From positions 5,810-69,809 of the forward strand of contig CBDVCA010000001.1 of assembly GCA_965372365.1 (NCBI GenBank): 64,000 nucleotides of DNA. The letters are read 5' to 3'. The position numbers and the translations under genes were made by a program. A model generated the notes under the pieces. It was given only the letters and a program-made list of their open reading frames with translations, was not told the DNA's origin and made no database searches. This DNA comes from an uncultured bacterium (GTDB lineage: Bacteria; Planctomycetota; Phycisphaerae; SM23-33; FEN-1343). Position 1 is the first letter of the stretch. Each line of letters begins with the position of its first letter. Positions 4,000-52,092 of this stretch are shown one piece after another.

Positions 4000-4103
4000 T
4001 GTCCTCCCCACGCACAGAAGCCATACGCTCGCGCGGACTATGCCCATGTGAGGTTCATCCGCGATTCGTGGGGAGTCCTTCCGATGAGCGCCCGCCGTTA
4101 CTA

Positions 4104-4264
4104 GTACTCTGTCACACCAAAACCTGCTAGGTCCGCGCCGTGCCGGATGGTCAGATGCAAGGAAGAAAGACGATGGCATATTCGAGGATATGCCGAGTTT
4201 TTCTGACGAAGCAGATGACCGTTCGCCACAAGCGGAGTTAGTAGGTTTTGGTGTGACAGAGTAC
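4104..4264 (+). mobile_element. MITE-a copy 1: 161-bp non-autonomous element with about 40-bp imperfect terminal inverted repeats (gtactctgtcacaccaaaacct...), flanked by TA (4102-4103 and 4265-4266)
   Basis: Seen in sequence: termini gtactctgtcacaccaaaacct / aggttttggtgtgacagagtac. Central core gatgcaaggaagaaagacgatggcatattcgaggatatgccgagtttttctgacgaagcagatgac is shared with the copy at 12562..12724. No ORF. Confidence 0.75.
4175..4202 (+). terminator. Terminator-like hairpin plus U-run inside MITE-a copy 1 (ggcatat-tcgagg-atatgcc gag ttttt)
   Basis: 7-bp stem and T5 run lying 176 nt downstream of the + strand kinase-like gene. The same motif is in copy 2 in the orientation of local transcription. 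The stem is AT-rich and weak. Confidence 0.3.
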
Positions 4265-4266
4265 TA

Positions 4267-4400
4267 GCCCCCCGCAGTGCGGGGGGTCGAGACGGGAGCG
4301 AACGGACAGAATGCGGATCGAGCTTTCGGTTTCCGCCGATCAGCGTTACATCCACAATAGGAATACCATCCGTCCCCATACCCCCTGCACTGCAGGGGGC
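4267..4400. mobile_element. Element Y: 134-bp TA-flanked element with 14-bp TIRs (gccccccgcagtgc / gcactgcagggggc), each terminus itself a GC hairpin; abuts MITE-a copy 1
   Basis: TA at 4265-4266 and 4401-4402. The outer flanks gccgttac (4094-4101) and gtaacggc (4403-4410) are reverse complements, implying a palindromic target gccgttacTAgtaacggc. Confidence 0.5.
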
Positions 4401-6074: not shown

Positions 6075-6400
6075 ACTGGACCTCTCGAAATGCGAGACGC
6101 TGGGCGCGCCTCTGGGCAATTATGAATTCGCCGCATGGTTGTTCCGGACAGTCGCGGCGGCTGGCACAGTCGCATCAGAGAACCGGCGACAAGCCGACAG
6201 TAATGCCTGCATTCCGGGCAGGCGCAGGCTTGTCTTTGGCGAAACTACCGGGACGAGGTGAAACTCCTGGCTTCCAGATCACATATCATTCCAAGCTCCC
6301 CGCCGAGCGGGATGAGCCTATCTAGATAGCGACAGAATTGTCGTTCGACTTGAGCTGTACTCCGGCTCTGGAGCCATTCACGATTGAGATGCGGGAACCG

Positions 6401-6475
6401 AGCATGAGCGAGAACGAACGTGGCGCGGACGTAACAGCAGCCATAGCAACGCTATGGCGATACCGCAGCCGGCTT
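6401..6475 (+). repeat. Conserved hairpin module, copy A (GAGCGAGAACGAACGTGGCG...GACGTAACAGCAGCCATAGC-aac-GCTATGGCGATACC)
   Basis: Homologous to the copies at 11941..12030 and 12433..12505. Perfect 8-bp stem 6440..6458 with loop aac. Lies in the 480-bp MCP/pgpA intergenic region. Confidence 0.6.
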
Positions 6476-6557
6476 GGACCCATCGGTCAATCGCGCACCG
6501 CTCTAATAGAGATTTATTCCAACGGCAATGGCCCTACCCCCCATCCGGCGGCCCGCA

Positions 6558-9111: not shown

Positions 9112-9229
9112 CCAACTCGGCCCCGCCAAAGGAACCGGGCCGAGCCGACCGGATTTTCGCCTCGAGTTCCCACTCGGCCCCGCCAAAGGAACCGGGCCGA
9201 GCCGACCGGATTCTCCCCTTCGAGTTCCC
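9112..9229. repeat. Two tandem copies of a 58-59 bp unit, each with an 8-bp GC stem (ctcggccc...gggccgag) and 13-nt loop cgccaaaggaacc, in the divergent rimO/dus promoter region
   Basis: Units at about 9112..9171 and 9170..9229 are about 93% identical. Hairpins at 9117..9145 and 9173..9201. The minus ORF 9104..9487 translates the repeats (SARPGSFGGAE twice) and is not a gene. Confidence 0.7.
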
Positions 9230-9260: not shown

Positions 9261-10253
9261 ATGAGTGCTCCGATGAATGTCCAACCTCTCCGGATCGGCC
9301 CGATCGAATTGACCGCCCCGGCGGTGCTGGCCCCGCTGGCCGGGTATACCGATCTGTCGTACCGGCTCGTCTGCCGACGGCTGGGCGCCGAGTATTGCGC
9401 GACCGAGGTGACGCTGGACACGTCGATCAACCAAGGCGAAAAACTCCGCCGCAAGCTTATACAGATCCCCGACGAGGACCACCTCATCGCCGGTCAGATT
9501 ATGGGCCGCGAACCGGCGTCGGTGGCCGAGGCCGCCGGGCGCGTTGTGGCCATGGGCGCCGACGTGATCGATCTGAACTTCGCCTGCCCGGTCCGCAAGG
9601 CCCTTCGGCGCCGTCGCGGCGGGCACATGATGCGAGCGCCGCAAACCGCCATCGCCACGCTCAAAGCGGTCGCCGAGGAGGTCGATGTACCGCTGACGGT
9701 GAAACTTCGACGGAGCTTCGACGACGATGATACGACCCACGACGCGTTCTGGCGAATCGCCGAGGCGGCCTTCGACCTCGGATTCGCCGCCATCTGCGTC
9801 CACGGCCGCTCCGTCCGCGCCGGCTACGGCGGCCCGGCCGATTGGGCGTTCCTCGCGAGCGTCAAACGCCGCTTCGCCGACCGGGTCGTCATCGGATCCG
9901 GCGACCTCATGACCGCCGCCGACGGCGTCCGCATGCTGGTCGAAACCGGCGTCGACGGCGTCTCCTTCGCCCGCGGCGCCCTGGGCAACCCCTGGATCTT
10001 CGGCCAGTTCCGCCAACTCCTCGCCGGTCAACCGGCCGCGGCTCCGACCGTGGTCGAGCAGGCCCGGGTGCTCCGCGAGCATTACGCCATGTGCCTGGAG
10101 TTCTTCGGCCCGCGAAACGGCCCGGCCATGATGAACCGCTTCGGCATCCGCTACGCCAAGGTCCACCCCACCCCCCGTCCGGTCCGCACCGCCTTCATCC
10201 AGTCCGACTGCGGCAAGGACATCCCGAAAATCCTCGACACGTACTACGCGTAG
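9261..10253 (+). CDS. tRNA-dihydrouridine synthase (Dus family)
   Basis: LAPLAGYTDLSYR, GQIMGREP, DVIDLNFACPVRK motifs. TATACT lies 7 nt upstream of the ATG, which may indicate a leaderless start. Confidence 0.85.
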   Translation: MSAPMNVQPLRIGPIELTAPAVLAPLAGYTDLSYRLVCRRLGAEYCATEVTLDTSINQGEKLRRKLIQIPDEDHLIAGQIMGREPASVAEAAGRVVAMGADVIDLNFACPVRKALRRRRGGHMMRAPQTAIATLKAVAEEVDVPLTVKLRRSFDDDDTTHDAFWRIAEAAFDLGFAAICVHGRSVRAGYGGPADWAFLASVKRRFADRVVIGSGDLMTAADGVRMLVETGVDGVSFARGALGNPWIFGQFRQLLAGQPAAAPTVVEQARVLREHYAMCLEFFGPRNGPAMMNRFGIRYAKVHPTPRPVRTAFIQSDCGKDIPKILDTYYA

Positions 10254-10305
10254 GACTCTGTCCCATCGACAATGTGGAGTTGGCTGGCTTCCCGTTGAGG
10301 CGCCG

Positions 10306-11940: not shown

Positions 11941-12030
11941 AGCGTGAGCGAGAACGAGCGTGGCGAGAACGAGCGTGGCGATGACGTTGAAGCAGCCATG
12001 GCAGTTCTGTGGCGATCGAAACGGACAATG
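11941..12030 (+). repeat. Conserved hairpin module, copy B (internal duplication of gagaacgagcgtggc; stem 11995..12013 kept by two G-U wobbles)
   Basis: gtgagcgagaacgagcgtggcg[agaacgagcgtggcg]atgacgttgaagcagccatggc-agtt-ctgtggcgatcgaaacggac. Lies in the roughly 500-bp rhomboid/nth intergenic region; no convincing CDS. Confidence 0.6.
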
Positions 12031-12401
12031 CCAGAAGGACTACCAGGCGCGCGATCCTCGCCATCGCATTCTTCATTGGCTCGGGGCCGCCGCGGTCGCG
12101 TCGGCGATGGAGTCACGACCGGTCCATCACCCCTCGCCCCCACGGGCACAGTTCCAACAGCCGACAATCGTCGCAACGCGGGCTCCTCGCCCGGCACACG
12201 GCTCGGCCGTGGGCGATCAGCAACAGGTGCATCGCGTACCGGTCCCGGGGGCGAATCAACGGGGTCAGCAAGTCGTGGGCCGCCTCGGCCGACGTTCCGG
12301 CAGGAAGAACCTCCAGGCGAATGGCGATGCGGAGAATGTGGGTGTCGACCGGAAAGACCGGCATACCGAAGCTGAACATCAACACGCAATAGGCGGTCTT
12401 A

Positions 12402-12559
12402 GAGCACTTTGCATAATAGATGTCGTGTTCAGGCGTAGGTGAGGACGAGGCTGGCAAGGACGTTGAAGCAGCCATAGCCTTTGCTATGGCGATGGAAACG
12501 GACGCCGCCAACCGATGCCGCAACCAGCATGAAGGCGACAGGTATTATGCAAAGTGCTC
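12402..12559. mobile_element. Element X: 158-bp TA-flanked element with perfect 17-bp TIRs (gagcactttgcataata / tattatgcaaagtgctc), carrying hairpin-module copy C
   Basis: TA at 12400-12401 and 12560-12561. Inserted in nth immediately next to MITE-a copy 2. Confidence 0.65.
12433..12505 (+). repeat. Conserved hairpin module, copy C (inside element X): gtaggtgaggacgaggctggcaaggacgttgaagcagccatagc-cttt-gctatggcgatggaaacggac
   Basis: Stem 12471..12490, perfect 8 bp with a 4-nt loop. A one-base loop-length difference from copy B shifts the reading frame while the nucleotide sequence stays conserved. Confidence 0.6.
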
Positions 12560-12561
12560 TA

Positions 12562-12724
12562 GTACCCTGTCCCAGCAATACTGTGGTGTTCTGACTTGCG
12601 GCGATGATGCGTCTGCTGCGTCAGAAAAGCTCGGCATATCAACCAATATGCCGTCACTTTTCTTCCTTACATCCACATCACCGGCGCGGCGTCATAACAC
12701 CACATTATCCCTGGGACAGAGTAC
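12562..12724 (-). mobile_element. MITE-a copy 2 (163 bp, inverted relative to copy 1), flanked by TA (12560-12561 and 12725-12726); inserted in nth
   Basis: Termini gtaccctgtcccag...ctgggacagagtac. Core (reverse complement) gatgtaaggaagaaaagtgacggcatattggttgatatgccgagcttttctgacgcagcag matches the copy 1 core. The TIR arms differ from copy 1 but stay mutually complementary. Confidence 0.75.
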
Positions 12725-13215
12725 TAGGGCCGACGCCCTTGAAACGGCATAGATACTCGAACGCCGCGGCGGGGGTCGCGTCGCCCAGAAAAGCCAAATC
12801 GATCGCTCCCCGCTCGGCGCGGATGTCGCGGAGGATCTTTCTGATTCGAGGCGCCTTCTGGCGTGACAAGCCGCTGACGCGAATGCATCGCTCGATGCGC
12901 CCGACCGGGACGTCGGCCGCGGCGTCCCAGGTGGACTCGGCGCCCGAGAACGATTCGACAAGCCGTCGGTATCCCGCTCGACTGTTCGCGCGGCTGGTCG
13001 ACTGCGACAAGATCGTCCCGATCAACACGTCGACCGGCGGACCGTGCGATTCCCACGAACGCCGACCGTACTGGTCGACCAAGCGGCAAAGGACATCGGC
13101 CAGAAGGCGACGGGATGTGAGGGCCGTGGGCATGGTGACGGTTCCGAGAATGCTTGCTCCGGCGAAGGGCGATCCAGGTGCCGACCGCCATCAAGCGCCG
13201 AAGACCGCTGCGCGT

Positions 13216-47643: not shown

Positions 47644-47716
47644 CACGGCAGGGAGGACTTGAACCCCCAACCTGCGGTTTTGGAAACCGCTGCTCTGCCA
47701 ATTGAGCTACTGCCGT
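47644..47716 (-). tRNA. tRNA-Trp (anticodon CCA)
   Basis: Cloverleaf folded by hand: acceptor ACGGCAG/CTGCCGT, D GCTC/GAGC, anticodon stem GCGGT/ACCGC with loop TTCCAAA, T arm GGGGG-TTCAAGT-CCTCC. No CCA is encoded. Confidence 0.85.
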
Positions 47717-47833
47717 ATCCGACCCGCCGTGCGGCGCGGCCCCGCCGTGCGGAGGCGCGCCACTGGGCGGCAGGTCGATATCCTGCTCCGGACGGCTCAT
47801 CCGGGGGGGAGGAGCCGCCCGCTATCGGGTTGT

Positions 47834-48001
47834 CTACTTCTTCTTGGTCTTGTGCACCGTGTGCTTACGGGTGCGCGGGCAGAACTTCTTGATTTCCAGC
47901 TTGCCGCCGCCGCCCTGAGTGCGGACCTGAACACGGTAGTTCAGATCCCCACAGTCGGTGCACTGTAGCCACACGTATTCCCGTGGCGAACCTTTGGCCA
48001 T
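47834..48001 (-). CDS. rpmG: 50S ribosomal protein L33 (55 aa; below the ORF-track cutoff)
   Basis: My translation: MAKGSPREYVWLQCTDCGDLNYRVQVRTQGGGGKLEIKKFCPRTRKHTVHKTKKK. Confidence 0.85.
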   Translation of the reverse strand: MAKGSPREYVWLQCTDCGDLNYRVQVRTQGGGGKLEIKKFCPRTRKHTVHKTKKK

Positions 48002-48005
48002 GATG

Positions 48006-49214
48006 TTACTCCAGGATCTTGGTCACGACGCCGGCGCCGACGGTGCGGCCGCCTTCGCGAATGGCGAAACGAAGACCGTCTTCCATGGCGATCTCGGTAT
48101 TGAGCAGTTCAACCATGATGGTGATATTGTCGCCGGGCATGCACATTTCGGCGCCGCCGAGCAGGTTGATGGTTCCGGTCACGTCGGTCGTGCGGAAGTA
48201 GAACTGCGGACGATAGCCGCTGAAGAACGGGCTGTGACGACCGCCCTCTTCCTTGGTCAGCACGTAGACCTCGGCCTCGAACTTCGTGTGGGGGGTGATC
48301 GAACCGGGGGCCGCCAACACCTGCCCGCGTTCCAGATCGGACTTCTCGACGCCGCGGAGCAGGCAACCGACGTTGTCGCCGGCCTGGCCCTGGTCGAGCA
48401 GCTTGTTGAACATCTCGACGCCGGTCACCGTCGTCTTGCGAGTTTCGCCCAGACCGACGATCTCGACCGTCTCGCCCACCTTGACGACACCGCGTTCGAT
48501 ACGGCCGGTGCCCACGGTGCCGCGACCCTTGATGCTGAAGACGTCTTCGATCGGCATCAGGAAGGGCTTGTCGATCTCACGCTCGGGCTCGGGAACGTAC
48601 GAATCCAACGCTTCCATCAACTCGTTGATGCAGGCGATGGCTTCGGGATCCTCGGGGTTGTTCATCGCGATCGACGCGGCGCCCTTGATGACGGGGCAGT
48701 TGTCGCCGTCGAAATCGTACTTGCTGAGCAGTTCGCGAACTTCCAGCTCGACCAGCTCTAGCAGTTCCTCGTCGTCGACCAGGTCGACCTTGTTGAGGAA
48801 GACGACCAGGGCCGGCACGTTCACCTGGCGGCTGAGCAGCACGTGCTCGCGCGTCTGGGGCATCGGGCCGTCGGCGGCCGACACCACCAGGATCGCCCCG
48901 TCCATCTGGGCGGCGCCGGTGATCATGTTCTTGACGTAATCGGCGTGACCGGGGCAATCTACATGAGCGTAGTGCCGCTTCTCCGACTCGTATTCCTGGT
49001 GACTGGTCGCAATCGTAAGGATCTTGGTCGCATCGCGACGACCCTGGCTTTCGGAGGCCTTGGCGACTTGATCGTACGACACGCCTTTGGCCAAACCCTT
49101 GGCGGCCTGCACCATTGTAATGGCAGCGGTCAGTGTGGTCTTGCCGTGATCCACGTGACCGATCGTGCCGACGTTAACGTGAGGCTTCGTTCGTTCAAAG
49201 ACCTCCTTGGCCAT
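48006..49214 (-). CDS. tuf: Elongation factor Tu (the only tuf in the window; tufB-type context)
   Basis: …[14 protein letters not shown]…DCPGHADY…. Confidence 0.95.
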
Positions 49215-49283
49215 TTTGTTGCTCCTGTAGAAACGCCGCTATTCGTGGGTCAAGACGACAGTTATCCTAACCGTTTCATTTCA

Positions 49284-49328
49284 GTCCAAACGACCTTCGT
49301 CCAAACGACCTTCGTCCAAACGACCTTA
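49284..49328. repeat. Three tandem copies of a 15-bp unit gtccaaacgaccttc in the tRNA-Thr(GGU)/tuf spacer
   Basis: Seen directly in the sequence. Confidence 0.8.
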
Positions 49329-49409
49329 CCGACTCTTCCGCCGGCAGCGCCGACGGCCGGGTGCAAACCCGTGCGTCACAAACACTATCGAGCGGGTTCT
49401 CCGCCCACG

Positions 49410-49481
<72 letters not shown>

Positions 49482-49640
49482 ACACGCCGCGCATCCCCGA
49501 GGGTACACCGCCCCTAGCGACCCTAGGGTGAACGGGGCATTATGCCTCAACGAAAGCGACTGTCAAATGAAAAATTATGCGCCCGACGCACAAAATGCCT
49601 CCAGGCAAGGGACCACGGGCCAAACACGCAGGGCCGCAAT

Positions 49641-49756
49641 CCGCCGACAAACGACTGAACGCCGCCGAAAAACAGCTGAACGCTACCGACAAACGACTGC
49701 ACGCTACCGACAAACGACTGCACGCTACCGGCAAACGACTGCACGCTACCGAAAGG
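49641..49756. repeat. About 5.5 tandem copies of a 21-bp unit (c[tc][ag]ccg[ag]caaacgactg[ac]acg) in the tRNA-Gly/tRNA-Thr(GGU) spacer
   Basis: Seen in sequence. Shares the core caaacgac with the 15-bp repeat at 49284..49328. Confidence 0.8.
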
Positions 49757-49795
49757 GGCCGCAAGTTGCCAAAGGGGCCGCGGATCGATCCGAAC

Positions 49796-49868
49796 AGCGG
49801 GCGACCGGGGTCGAACCGGCAACAACTAGCTTGGAAGGCTAGTACTCTACCAATTGAGCTACGCCCGC
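49796..49868 (-). tRNA. tRNA-Gly (anticodon UCC)
   Basis: GCGGGCG-TA-GCTC…CTAGC-CTTCCAA-GCTAG…GCCGG-TTCGACC-CCGGT-CGCCCGC-T. Confidence 0.85.
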
Positions 49869-49980
49869 AAGCAACGCCAAACCCGCCTCTCAGCCGCGGC
49901 CAGCCTCTGCCACAGACCCGACATACGGACCGGTCGGCCATCTCGTCGCACGGCAAGCCGCGGCAACGCCGCGACCTTAC

Positions 49981-50063
49981 TGGGAGCGGGTGGATTCGAA
50001 CCACCGAAGGCGTACGCCGTCAGATTTACAGTCTGATCCCTTTGGCCACTCGGGCACACTCCC
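49981..50063 (-). tRNA. tRNA-Tyr (anticodon GUA; long variable arm)
   Basis: GGGAGTG-TG-CCCG…TCAGA-CTGTAAA-TCTGA-CGGCGTACGCCTTC-GGTGG-TTCGAAT-CCACC-CGCTCCC-A. Confidence 0.85.
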
Positions 50064-50111
50064 ACGAACGTCTCGCCTGCAAGCGAGCGTAGCAATAAAG
50101 CATGATCCATG

Positions 50112-50143
50112 CGGCGTGTCAACCGGCTACACGTCGTTTTTTT
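50112..50143 (+). terminator. Candidate intrinsic terminator on the + strand (cggcgtgt-caaccggct-acacgtcg plus T7), antisense to the tRNA operon
   Basis: 8-bp stem (one G-U) followed by TTTTTTT. No + strand gene was identified upstream. Confidence 0.35.
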
Positions 50144-50185
50144 GCAGAAACCGCGTTCAATGCCGATATTCCACACGCCGCGTCA

Positions 50186-50257
50186 AGCCAGCGATGGGAT
50201 TCGAACCCGTAACCTCCGCTTTACAAAAGCGGTGCTCTACCGTTGAGCTACGCTGGC
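50186..50257 (-). tRNA. tRNA-Thr (anticodon UGU)
   Basis: GCCAGCG-TA-GCTC…CCGCT-TTTGTAA-AGCGG…ACGGG-TTCGAAT-CCCAT-CGCTGGC-T (one A-C mismatch in the T stem). Confidence 0.8.
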
Positions 50258-51252: not shown

Positions 51253-52092
51253 TTAGCCCGGATATTTCACACAGCGTGGTGGTTCCCCTATATCGCGACG
51301 GCCTTACTGTTTGGTATAACAAGAGTTAGCAAGATCTCCACCCACGCAGAAAGGCCGTCAACGATGACAGAGCGTCACCAAAAGCCCCTGCTGTTTTCAA
51401 GTCTTCTTCGGAAGAAGATCGTGGCGGATTTCAACGGTGACGACATCACCACCGATGGGGGTTTGCCGCTGATCCGCGAGGTGGACCGGAGGATCGGCCT
51501 GATCGACGCGATCGATAGCGCTATCGACGACCCCCGTTGCCCGTGGCTCATCGAGCACGACCAGCGAACGATCCTGGCCCAGCGGATTTTCGCTATCAAC
51601 GCCGGATACGAAGACCTCAACGACCACCAGACGTTGCGGAACGATACGCTCATGCAGGCCATCACCGACCGGCGGCTCAAGGTCGGACAGACCGAGCACG
51701 ATCCTCTGTCGAACCCACCGACTCTGTGCCGATTGGCCGGCACGGAACTGGCTACGGCGCAGGCGACCACGATCCGTCTGAAACTGCTGAAGATCGGGGG
51801 CCGCATCGTGCGGTCGGTTCGCCGTATCGCGATCCACTTGGCCGGCGGCTATCCGTTGCAGGCCCTATTCCACACGGTCCTGCACAATCTCCAGGAACGG
51901 AGATTCACCGCCGGCGGGCGCGACCTGGGCTTGCCGGAACCCTCTACATAACCTCCGGACAATTCGATTCTGACAGCGGGGGAAAGGGGGTTGTTCGTGC
52001 CGAGCGGGCGGCTATGCAAGCAAACCCAACTCCATATGCCCAAATGACCTCGCGACTCCCATCGCCAACGCTGTGTGAAATATCCGGGCTAA
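51253..52092 (+). mobile_element. Internally deleted IS1380-family insertion sequence (about 840 bp) with 25-bp perfect terminal inverted repeats ttagcccggatatttcacacagcgt
   Basis: IRL 51253..51277; IRR 52068..52092 is its exact reverse complement. It carries a 195-aa transposase remnant. No target-site duplication is evident. Confidence 0.7.
51364..51951 (+). pseudogene. IS1380-family DDE transposase remnant: N-terminal about 150 aa fused to the C-terminal about 45 aa, with the catalytic core deleted
   Basis: N-terminal family pattern FNGDDITTDGGLPLIREVDRRIGL…INAGYEDLNDHQTLRNDTLMQ…LSNPPTLCRLAG. C-terminal pattern KIGGRIVRSVRRIAIHLAGGYPLQALFHTVL. Full-length family members are about 430-470 aa. 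A possible internal promoter ttactg-N-tataac and GAAAGG SD lie upstream. Confidence 0.65.

Follow-up and report, generated by a model that had tools for sequence, protein, structure and literature searches.

The stretch of DNA analysed here, 64 kb of contig CBDVCA010000001.1 (assembly GCA_965372365.1) from an uncultured bacterium of the Planctomycetota and called the window throughout, carries on its minus strand an endonuclease III-family DNA glycosylase gene that is interrupted by two short elements, X and MITE-a (MITE, miniature inverted-repeat transposable element). The two minus-strand open reading frames (ORFs) on either side of the elements were confirmed to be the halves of one helix-hairpin-helix (HhH)-GPD/[4Fe-4S] glycosylase gene, and three copies of the dinucleotide TA delimit the elements. 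From left to right on the forward strand, the locus is composed of:

12113..12399, minus strand: C-terminal half of the glycosylase gene, which holds Lys137, Asp155 and the [4Fe-4S] loop
12400..12401: TA copy 1, left of X
12402..12559: element X, 158 bp, with termini GAGCACTTTGCATAATA and TATTATGCAAAGTGCTC
12560..12561: TA copy 2, between X and MITE-a and common to both elements
12562..12724: MITE-a, 163 bp, with termini GTACCCTGTCCCAGCAATA and TATCCCTGGGACAGAGTAC
12725..12726: TA copy 3, right of MITE-a
12727..13133, minus strand: N-terminal half of the glycosylase gene, codons 1-135 and the first 2 nt of the Pro136 codon

Counting two of the TA copies, the inserted block measures 325 nt, and since 325 mod 3 = 1 the gene halves lie one frame apart, as the original prediction had proposed. 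It had also held that removal of the elements together with one extra TA regenerates the motif GVGPKTAY. Indeed, when 12402..12726 is taken out, a 696-nt ORF of 231 aa is regained whose joint reads GGC GTC GGC CCT AAG ACC GCC TAT (GVGPKTAY), and the rebuilt gene sequence across the emptied site is ...GGTCTTAGGGCC.... The target TA belongs to the codons for Pro136 (ccT) and Lys137 (Aag), at the HhH catalytic lysine, such that the first A of the lysine codon is supplied by the TA. As it stands, the N-terminal ORF (12705..13133, 142 aa) finishes with the tail ...FKGVGPSTLSQG (...GVGPSTLSQG) at a stop codon located at 12705-12707, exactly 20 nt into MITE-a, where it had been placed before. The C-terminal ORF (12113..12523) reads ...YYAKCSKTAYCVLMFSFGMPVFPVDTH...CRARSPRCDDCRLLELC... 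and its frame, which contains a TTG at 12523, has no stop from 12544 onwards, both positions being inside X. It had been suggested that the C-terminal half could be made only from a start within X; the open frame and the TTG agree with such a start, but in-frame ATG codons occur further on, including some within the gene half (CVLMFSFGM), and the suggestion was thus slightly overstated. Each half was recovered by hmmsearch with the family profile (7.8e-65 for the N-terminal half and 3.3e-53 for the C-terminal half), and the G+C content is 66% in the gene halves versus 54% in X and 52% in MITE-a.

A search of 5.8 billion proteins (E ≤ 1e-10) retrieved 753 relatives of the glycosylase, and those with a named source are mostly Planctomycetota or Phycisphaerae. 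Among full-length relatives identity reaches 72% at most, and the sole near-identical protein entry is the 142-aa N-terminal fragment of this gene itself (P0005), found on one 70-kb contig. The rebuilt protein was aligned with 15 homologues and, in a second alignment, with 116, and both were gapless at the joint (GVGPKTAYCVLMF), so that the joined sequence passed a test set in advance, namely that it should align in frame with its homologues. The relatives compared at the DNA level, which fall within 64-69% identity, were L028/L029 (69%; from GCA_964535025.1 and from a Logan contig) and L030/L031 (66%). The order rpoA-L17-HIT-GT2-glycosylase is common to the window and to both of them, with a GT2 gene of 506-517 aa, and their glycosylase gene is intact and encodes 216 or 246 aa. 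At the insertion point these relatives have GTC AAG or CCC AAG, with no element and no TA; the TA target is present in this lineage because its Pro136 is encoded by CCT. Since the syntenic orthologues are uninterrupted, the interrupted state is derived and not ancestral, which settles the other test that had been set beforehand.

The rebuilt gene shows no sign of decay. Among 81 columns, each at least 90% conserved in the 116 intact homologues, the rebuilt protein is off-consensus at 2, the same number as the homologue median, and 56% of the intact homologues deviate at these columns at least as often. The rebuilt ORF has neither frameshift nor stop, and the earlier statement that the insertion is recent and accompanied by no other lesions agrees with these counts. 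The lone length difference is an in-frame stretch of four residues, SGAE (residues 64-67, approximately 12933-12944), which is lineage-specific and was seen in 0 of the 116 homologues. Because the ORF is otherwise undecayed, the insertion appears young on the evolutionary time scale of the gene; the intactness fits a recent event but does not date it, and the identity of terminal repeats is no measure of age for this class of elements.

As for the kind of glycosylase, the rebuilt protein matches PF00730 (HhH-GPD) over residues 38-179 with 44.6 bits, above the gathering cut-off of 26.2, and contains at residues 205-221 a [4Fe-4S] loop of the form C-X6-C-X2-C-X5-C (CRARSPRCDDCRLLELC), the cysteines of which are at least 90% conserved among homologues. 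PF10576 aligned over the same residues with 17.1 bits, slightly below its cut-off of 20.5. The motifs GVGPK137TA and FPVD155TH line up with those of Deinococcus radiodurans EndoIII-1 and of the homologues, and we take Lys137 and Asp155 to be the catalytic residues, matching K120 and D138 of Escherichia coli Nth. The top solved-structure match is in fact D. radiodurans EndoIII-1 (8A5C/4UNF; E = 3e-39, residues 9-222), whereas the match to E. coli Nth (2ABK) is weaker (E = 4e-17). The HhH motif GVG-K-TA, the aspartate of FPVDTH and the cysteine loop are common to the rebuilt protein and this EndoIII-1 (DrEndoIII1); with canonical endonuclease III, as represented by E. coli Nth, the rebuilt protein shares the superfamily, the fold elements and the arrangement of catalytic Lys and Asp. 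The top NCBIfam model is NF053634 (DR2438-type glycosylase), although the score of 152.4 bits lies below its cut-off of 400 and hence below the equivalog level for DR2438, and both curated models of canonical Nth scored under their thresholds (87.5 versus 211.7 for TIGR01083; 65.1 versus 405 for PRK10702/NF007978). From these matches, the gene would be accurately described as a member of the endonuclease III family that is EndoIII-1 (DR2438)-like, its status as a canonical Nth not being established; the identity given to it by the original prediction therefore stands at the level of the family, while the canonical Nth models fall below their cut-offs and the closest protein is EndoIII-1. DrEndoIII1 has been described as having an 'unusual' activity, the main endonuclease III of D. 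radiodurans being DrEndoIII2 (PMC9268735). There is no second HhH-GPD gene in the 64-kb window.

The reading that we favour, with a probability of about 85%, is that this single-copy, syntenic, EndoIII-1-like glycosylase gene was inactivated by two independent TA-duplicating insertions. These would have been cut-and-paste events of short non-autonomous elements, each using and duplicating a TA, mobilised by a transposase that would act in trans and be encoded outside the window. Bacterial MITEs are typically shorter than 200 bp, with TA at their ends, terminal inverted repeats and a higher A+T content than the host genome (PMC2229807). X and MITE-a agree with this description in their size, their terminal inverted repeats and their lack of a transposase ORF, the six-frame translation of both giving short or chance ORFs only. 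That a target site was duplicated is apparent from the emptied site, which restores a conserved ORF, and from the uninterrupted orthologues; the TA copies at 12400, 12560 and 12725, as well as those at 4102 and 4265 beside another copy of MITE-a described below, indicate a duplication of 2 bp. Elements of the IS630/ISY100/Tc1-mariner type insert at TA and duplicate it (PMC2170065). Other duplications were considered and rejected: a 3-bp TNA (IS1031-like) would need TTA/CTA and a 4-bp YTAR (IS5-like) would need TTAG/CTAG, each leaving a mismatch between the two sides of X, and if the TA is taken as part of the terminal repeats, the flanks differ (CT versus GT). The TA duplication of 2 bp was accepted because it is the only model that fits all junctions and restores the lysine codon, which bears out what had been claimed of the target site. 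As for the claim of two sequential insertions, the TA triplet fits two successive TA-duplicating events, although we infer, rather than observe, their succession and order.

Of the two elements, only MITE-a is shown to have relatives that are intact and flanked by TA, and in the window it is dispersed as two complete copies and one remnant. In addition to MITE-a itself, the features of the family are:

4104..4264: second complete family member, 161 bp, intergenic, with TA at 4102-03 and 4265-66
10253..10281: remnant of one terminus of the MITE-a type, 29 nt, preceded by TA
12632..12653: central hairpin of MITE-a, CGGCATAT-loop-ATATGCCG, with T-rich runs after it on both strands

The terminal inverted repeats of MITE-a (GTACYCTGTCCCAG.., the terminus being also read as GTACYCTGTCMCA) have arms of 40 nt that are 85% complementary, and the element is palindromic over its full length, such that as a single strand it folds into a full-length hairpin (z = -9.1 versus shuffles). 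The terminal repeat has 5 matches in the window, where 0.03 would be expected. The two complete copies are alike in their termini and central block and unlike in their sub-terminal arms, yet each is self-complementary throughout. The central hairpin of the copy at 4104 (4170-4192) has an identical stem and a different loop, and in its structure this hairpin looks like a bidirectional terminator. The 4104 copy is situated just 3' of an 881-aa ORF and is directly followed by a G+C-rich hairpin (4270-4288); its restored target is aCTAGc. The Dus and rhomboid genes converge on a spacer of 52 nt, a large part of which is taken up by the remnant, and the stop codon of Dus, TAG, is formed by the flanking TA and the first G of the remnant (10251-10281).

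Element X has terminal inverted repeats (GAGCACTTTGCATAATA) that are complementary at 17/17 positions and extend imperfectly to 40 nt, with 2 matches of the terminal repeat in the window versus 0.05 expected, and as a single strand it also folds into a full-length hairpin (z = -7.5 versus shuffles). Its core, of approximately 55-70 nt (12433..12503 in X), is present three times in the window in a single orientation, with these two copies outside X:

11958..12026, plus strand: X-core copy, 82% identity to 12433..12503, intergenic
6410..6461, plus strand: third X-core copy, 75% identity, intergenic

The core copy at 11958 is contained in a 174-bp stretch delimited by a 20-nt inverted repeat that is 80% complementary (11922-11941/12076-12095), and the one at 6410 lies within 6371..6503, bounded by a 17-nt inverted repeat that is 76% complementary. 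Local alignment scores of the core were 73, 39 and 63, versus 16 +/- 2.5 for shuffles, and the core reads ...GAGAACGAGCGTGGCG.GGACGTTGAAGCAGCCATAGC...GCTATGGCGAT.GAAACGGAC. The two copies outside X are located some 240-290 nt upstream of minus-strand genes (rhomboid and chemoreceptor), and the ends around them differ from those of X and are decayed. Because the core recurs in copies with weaker bounding inverted repeats, X seems to be the most recent addition to a repeat family that is itself older. A hairpin in the core, CCATAGC/GCTATGG, is kept across the copies, although the z-scores of the fold are weak. A coding or RNA role for the core was considered and rejected, since the conservation of frames on both strands is explained by the DNA identity of about 80%; the Rfam scan of the region gave a sub-threshold chance match only and none for the core. 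Between the glycosylase and rhomboid genes, the X-core-like repeat is edged by a perfect 15-nt tandem duplication (GCGAGAACGAGCGTG, twice) at 11948-11977.

With regard to the order of the insertions, X probably came first and MITE-a second, in roughly two chances out of three judging from the target sites. In the proposed course, X would have entered cTTAGg, its right junction would then have read gtgctC-TA-Gggcc, creating a new CTAG, the preferred target of IS630-type elements, and MITE-a would have entered this CTAG to give TA-X-TA-MITE-TA. Since X ends in ...C and the gene resumes with G..., C-TA-G arises at the right junction of X, precisely the position of MITE-a; in the present arrangement a CTAG is likewise made up of the last base of X, TA copy 2 and the first base of MITE-a. 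A preference of IS630 for TA within CTAG was reported by Tenzen and Ohtsubo (1991), as cited in PMC2170065. Such sites are rather scarce here: the emptied window has 1237 TA, of which 30 (2.4%) are in CTAG, and none of the 8 TA of the rebuilt gene is in a CTAG. The 4104 copy stands in a CTAG context, and MITE-a does so only if X came first, the copies being few. The X-first order is favoured because the right junction of X creates a CTAG and the 4104 copy is also in one, and it also accounts for the two elements being adjacent.

The reverse order, which we regard as possible but doubtful, has MITE-a entering cTTAGg first and X inserting afterwards into the left TA copy, in a tTTAGt context. 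The final arrangement is the same under either order, and since the target of X is TTAG in both, X itself does not discriminate between them. The target of MITE-a, however, would then be TTAG, whereas its lone independent copy is in CTAG, a context of 2.4% of the TA, and the adjacency of the elements would be left to chance or to a general liking for the ends of elements.

It is quite improbable that X-TA-MITE-a moved as a composite in one transposition, by means of the outer ends of X and MITE-a. The elements are directly adjacent and the outer pair of TA would by itself satisfy a single TA duplication, but the outer ends are unrelated (GAGCACTTTGCATAATA versus GTACTCTGTCCCAGGGATA) and one transposase would have to pair unlike ends. 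Moreover, the internal TA is the exact prediction of a second insertion, and elements of the MITE-a type are found alone elsewhere in the window. An artefact of assembly or binning, by which repeats were misjoined into an otherwise intact gene of a metagenome-assembled contig, appears equally improbable. The assembly is that of an uncultured organism, the P0005 fragment is known from a single 70-kb contig, and short repeats are classic sites of misassembly. A misjoin, however, would not give three TA in register, complete two-ended elements and flanks that rejoin perfectly, and the syntenic GT2 gene still has both halves of the gene beside it, in unchanged position and orientation.

As for the consequences of the insertions for expression, we infer an N-terminal product of 136 native residues followed by STLSQG, lacking the catalytic Lys and Asp and the [4Fe-4S] loop. 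Transcription of the gene would run into the terminator-like hairpin of MITE-a and would probably stop there. A sigma-70-like match, GGGACA-18-CATAAT, is found on the minus strand at 12544-12573, across the MITE-a/X junction, and is directed into X and the C-terminal half of the gene; it is weak (9/12), and a product made from this promoter-like site would lack most of the fold. The CATAAT hexamer is within the terminal repeat of X and is inward-reading at both ends of the element.

We give very little credence to a reversible switch, in which a trans-acting IS630-type transposase would precisely excise both elements and so toggle the glycosylase (phase-variable repair, or a mutator state), or to its variant in which the junction promoter would express a stand-alone FeS fragment: removal of the elements and two of the three TA does give a flawless gene, and for the variant there is the sigma-70-like match on the gene strand and a frame open from X into the C-terminal half, but nothing points to excision, no transposase was seen nearby (ten window ORFs), two separate elements would each have to leave precisely, recency explains the intact ORF equally well, the promoter match is weak, the C-terminal fragment would be without about 60% of the fold, and nothing positively supports either the switch or an expressed C-terminal fragment.

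Several results weigh against the favoured reading of two independent insertions. In the window, the termini of X are not found again on any second copy, and only the core of the element recurs. The 17-mer of its terminus gave 27 single matches in unrelated taxa among the GTDB species-representative genomes and 50 single chance matches in metagenome contigs of the Joint Genome Institute (JGI), where similarity stops at 18-25 nt, and none of the 77 matches from these two collections was a pair of X termini. Spurious ORFs that might have been annotated over other copies of the elements were sought among the 5.8 billion proteins with a chimeric query, built from the six-frame translations of X, of the two MITEs and of the core repeats, and none was found. 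No transposase with matching ends was found in the window ORFs that were scanned, and the assignment to the IS630 type is founded on the 2-bp TA duplication and on nothing further. The CTAG argument for the order draws on one independent copy, the one at 4104. Finally, that no active glycosylase is made is deduced from the missing domains, from which a loss of function would follow.

Other searches bear on the origin of the elements. Two 17-mer matches in one metagenome-assembled genome of the Desulfobacterales were rejected as a candidate, being paralogous gene sequence with no element. The whole insert had no blastn match in plasmids and phages, no paired MITE-a termini were found in viral contigs, and the Pfam scan of ten mid-sized window ORFs revealed no transposase. 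The families of X and MITE-a appear unrecorded, though of a known kind. The window is made up of housekeeping genes, among them operons for ribosomal proteins, rpoA, EF-Tu and tRNA genes, and the MITEs have entered core-genome territory.

The arrangement has counterparts among known elements. In eukaryotes, MITEs of the Stowaway/mariner type are found with a second element in the TA regenerated by the first, TA-E1-TA-E2-TA. The present case differs in being prokaryotic, in involving two unrelated families and in offering the junction CTAG as a specific reason for the adjacency. Among bacterial elements, RUP of Streptococcus pneumoniae, for which mobilisation by IS630-Spn1 has been proposed, is like X and MITE-a in being shorter than 200 bp, in its terminal inverted repeats and hairpins, in inserting at TA with duplication of the TA, and in an A+T content above that of the host; other mobile elements are among the sites that RUP enters (PMC2229807; PMC2170065). 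Unlike MITEs of the RUP type, X and MITE-a are similar in sequence to no element of the collections that were searched, and their host is G+C-rich and Planctomycetota-like.

Elsewhere in the window, a tandem direct repeat of approximately 57-61 nt with 93% identity (9112-9229) occupies the spacer of the divergent genes for a MiaB-like radical-SAM protein and Dus. Five tRNA genes lie on the minus strand at 47644-50257, around the EF-Tu gene (48006..49214), and a perfect pair of 25-nt inverted repeats is located at 51253-51277 and 52068-52092, about 800 nt apart.

The inactivation of genes by MITEs and the occurrence of adjacent MITEs at TA are already known, so that the event described here is an ordinary one that leaves current understanding unchallenged. 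Nevertheless, the locus is a natural filled site whose empty site can be deduced to the base, a case of textbook quality, and it illustrates how one insertion may create the preferred target of the next. For two non-autonomous elements of a G+C-rich, Planctomycetota-like genome, the locus fixes the ends and the duplication of TA, together with a probable preference for CTAG, and the terminal repeats could guide both the search for the partner transposase and the annotation of such elements, since gene callers turn genes interrupted in this manner into two fragmentary 'genes'. For the organism, with a weight that would depend on the other HhH-GPD genes of its genome, the interruption predicts the loss of one glycosylase of the endonuclease III family in this lineage.

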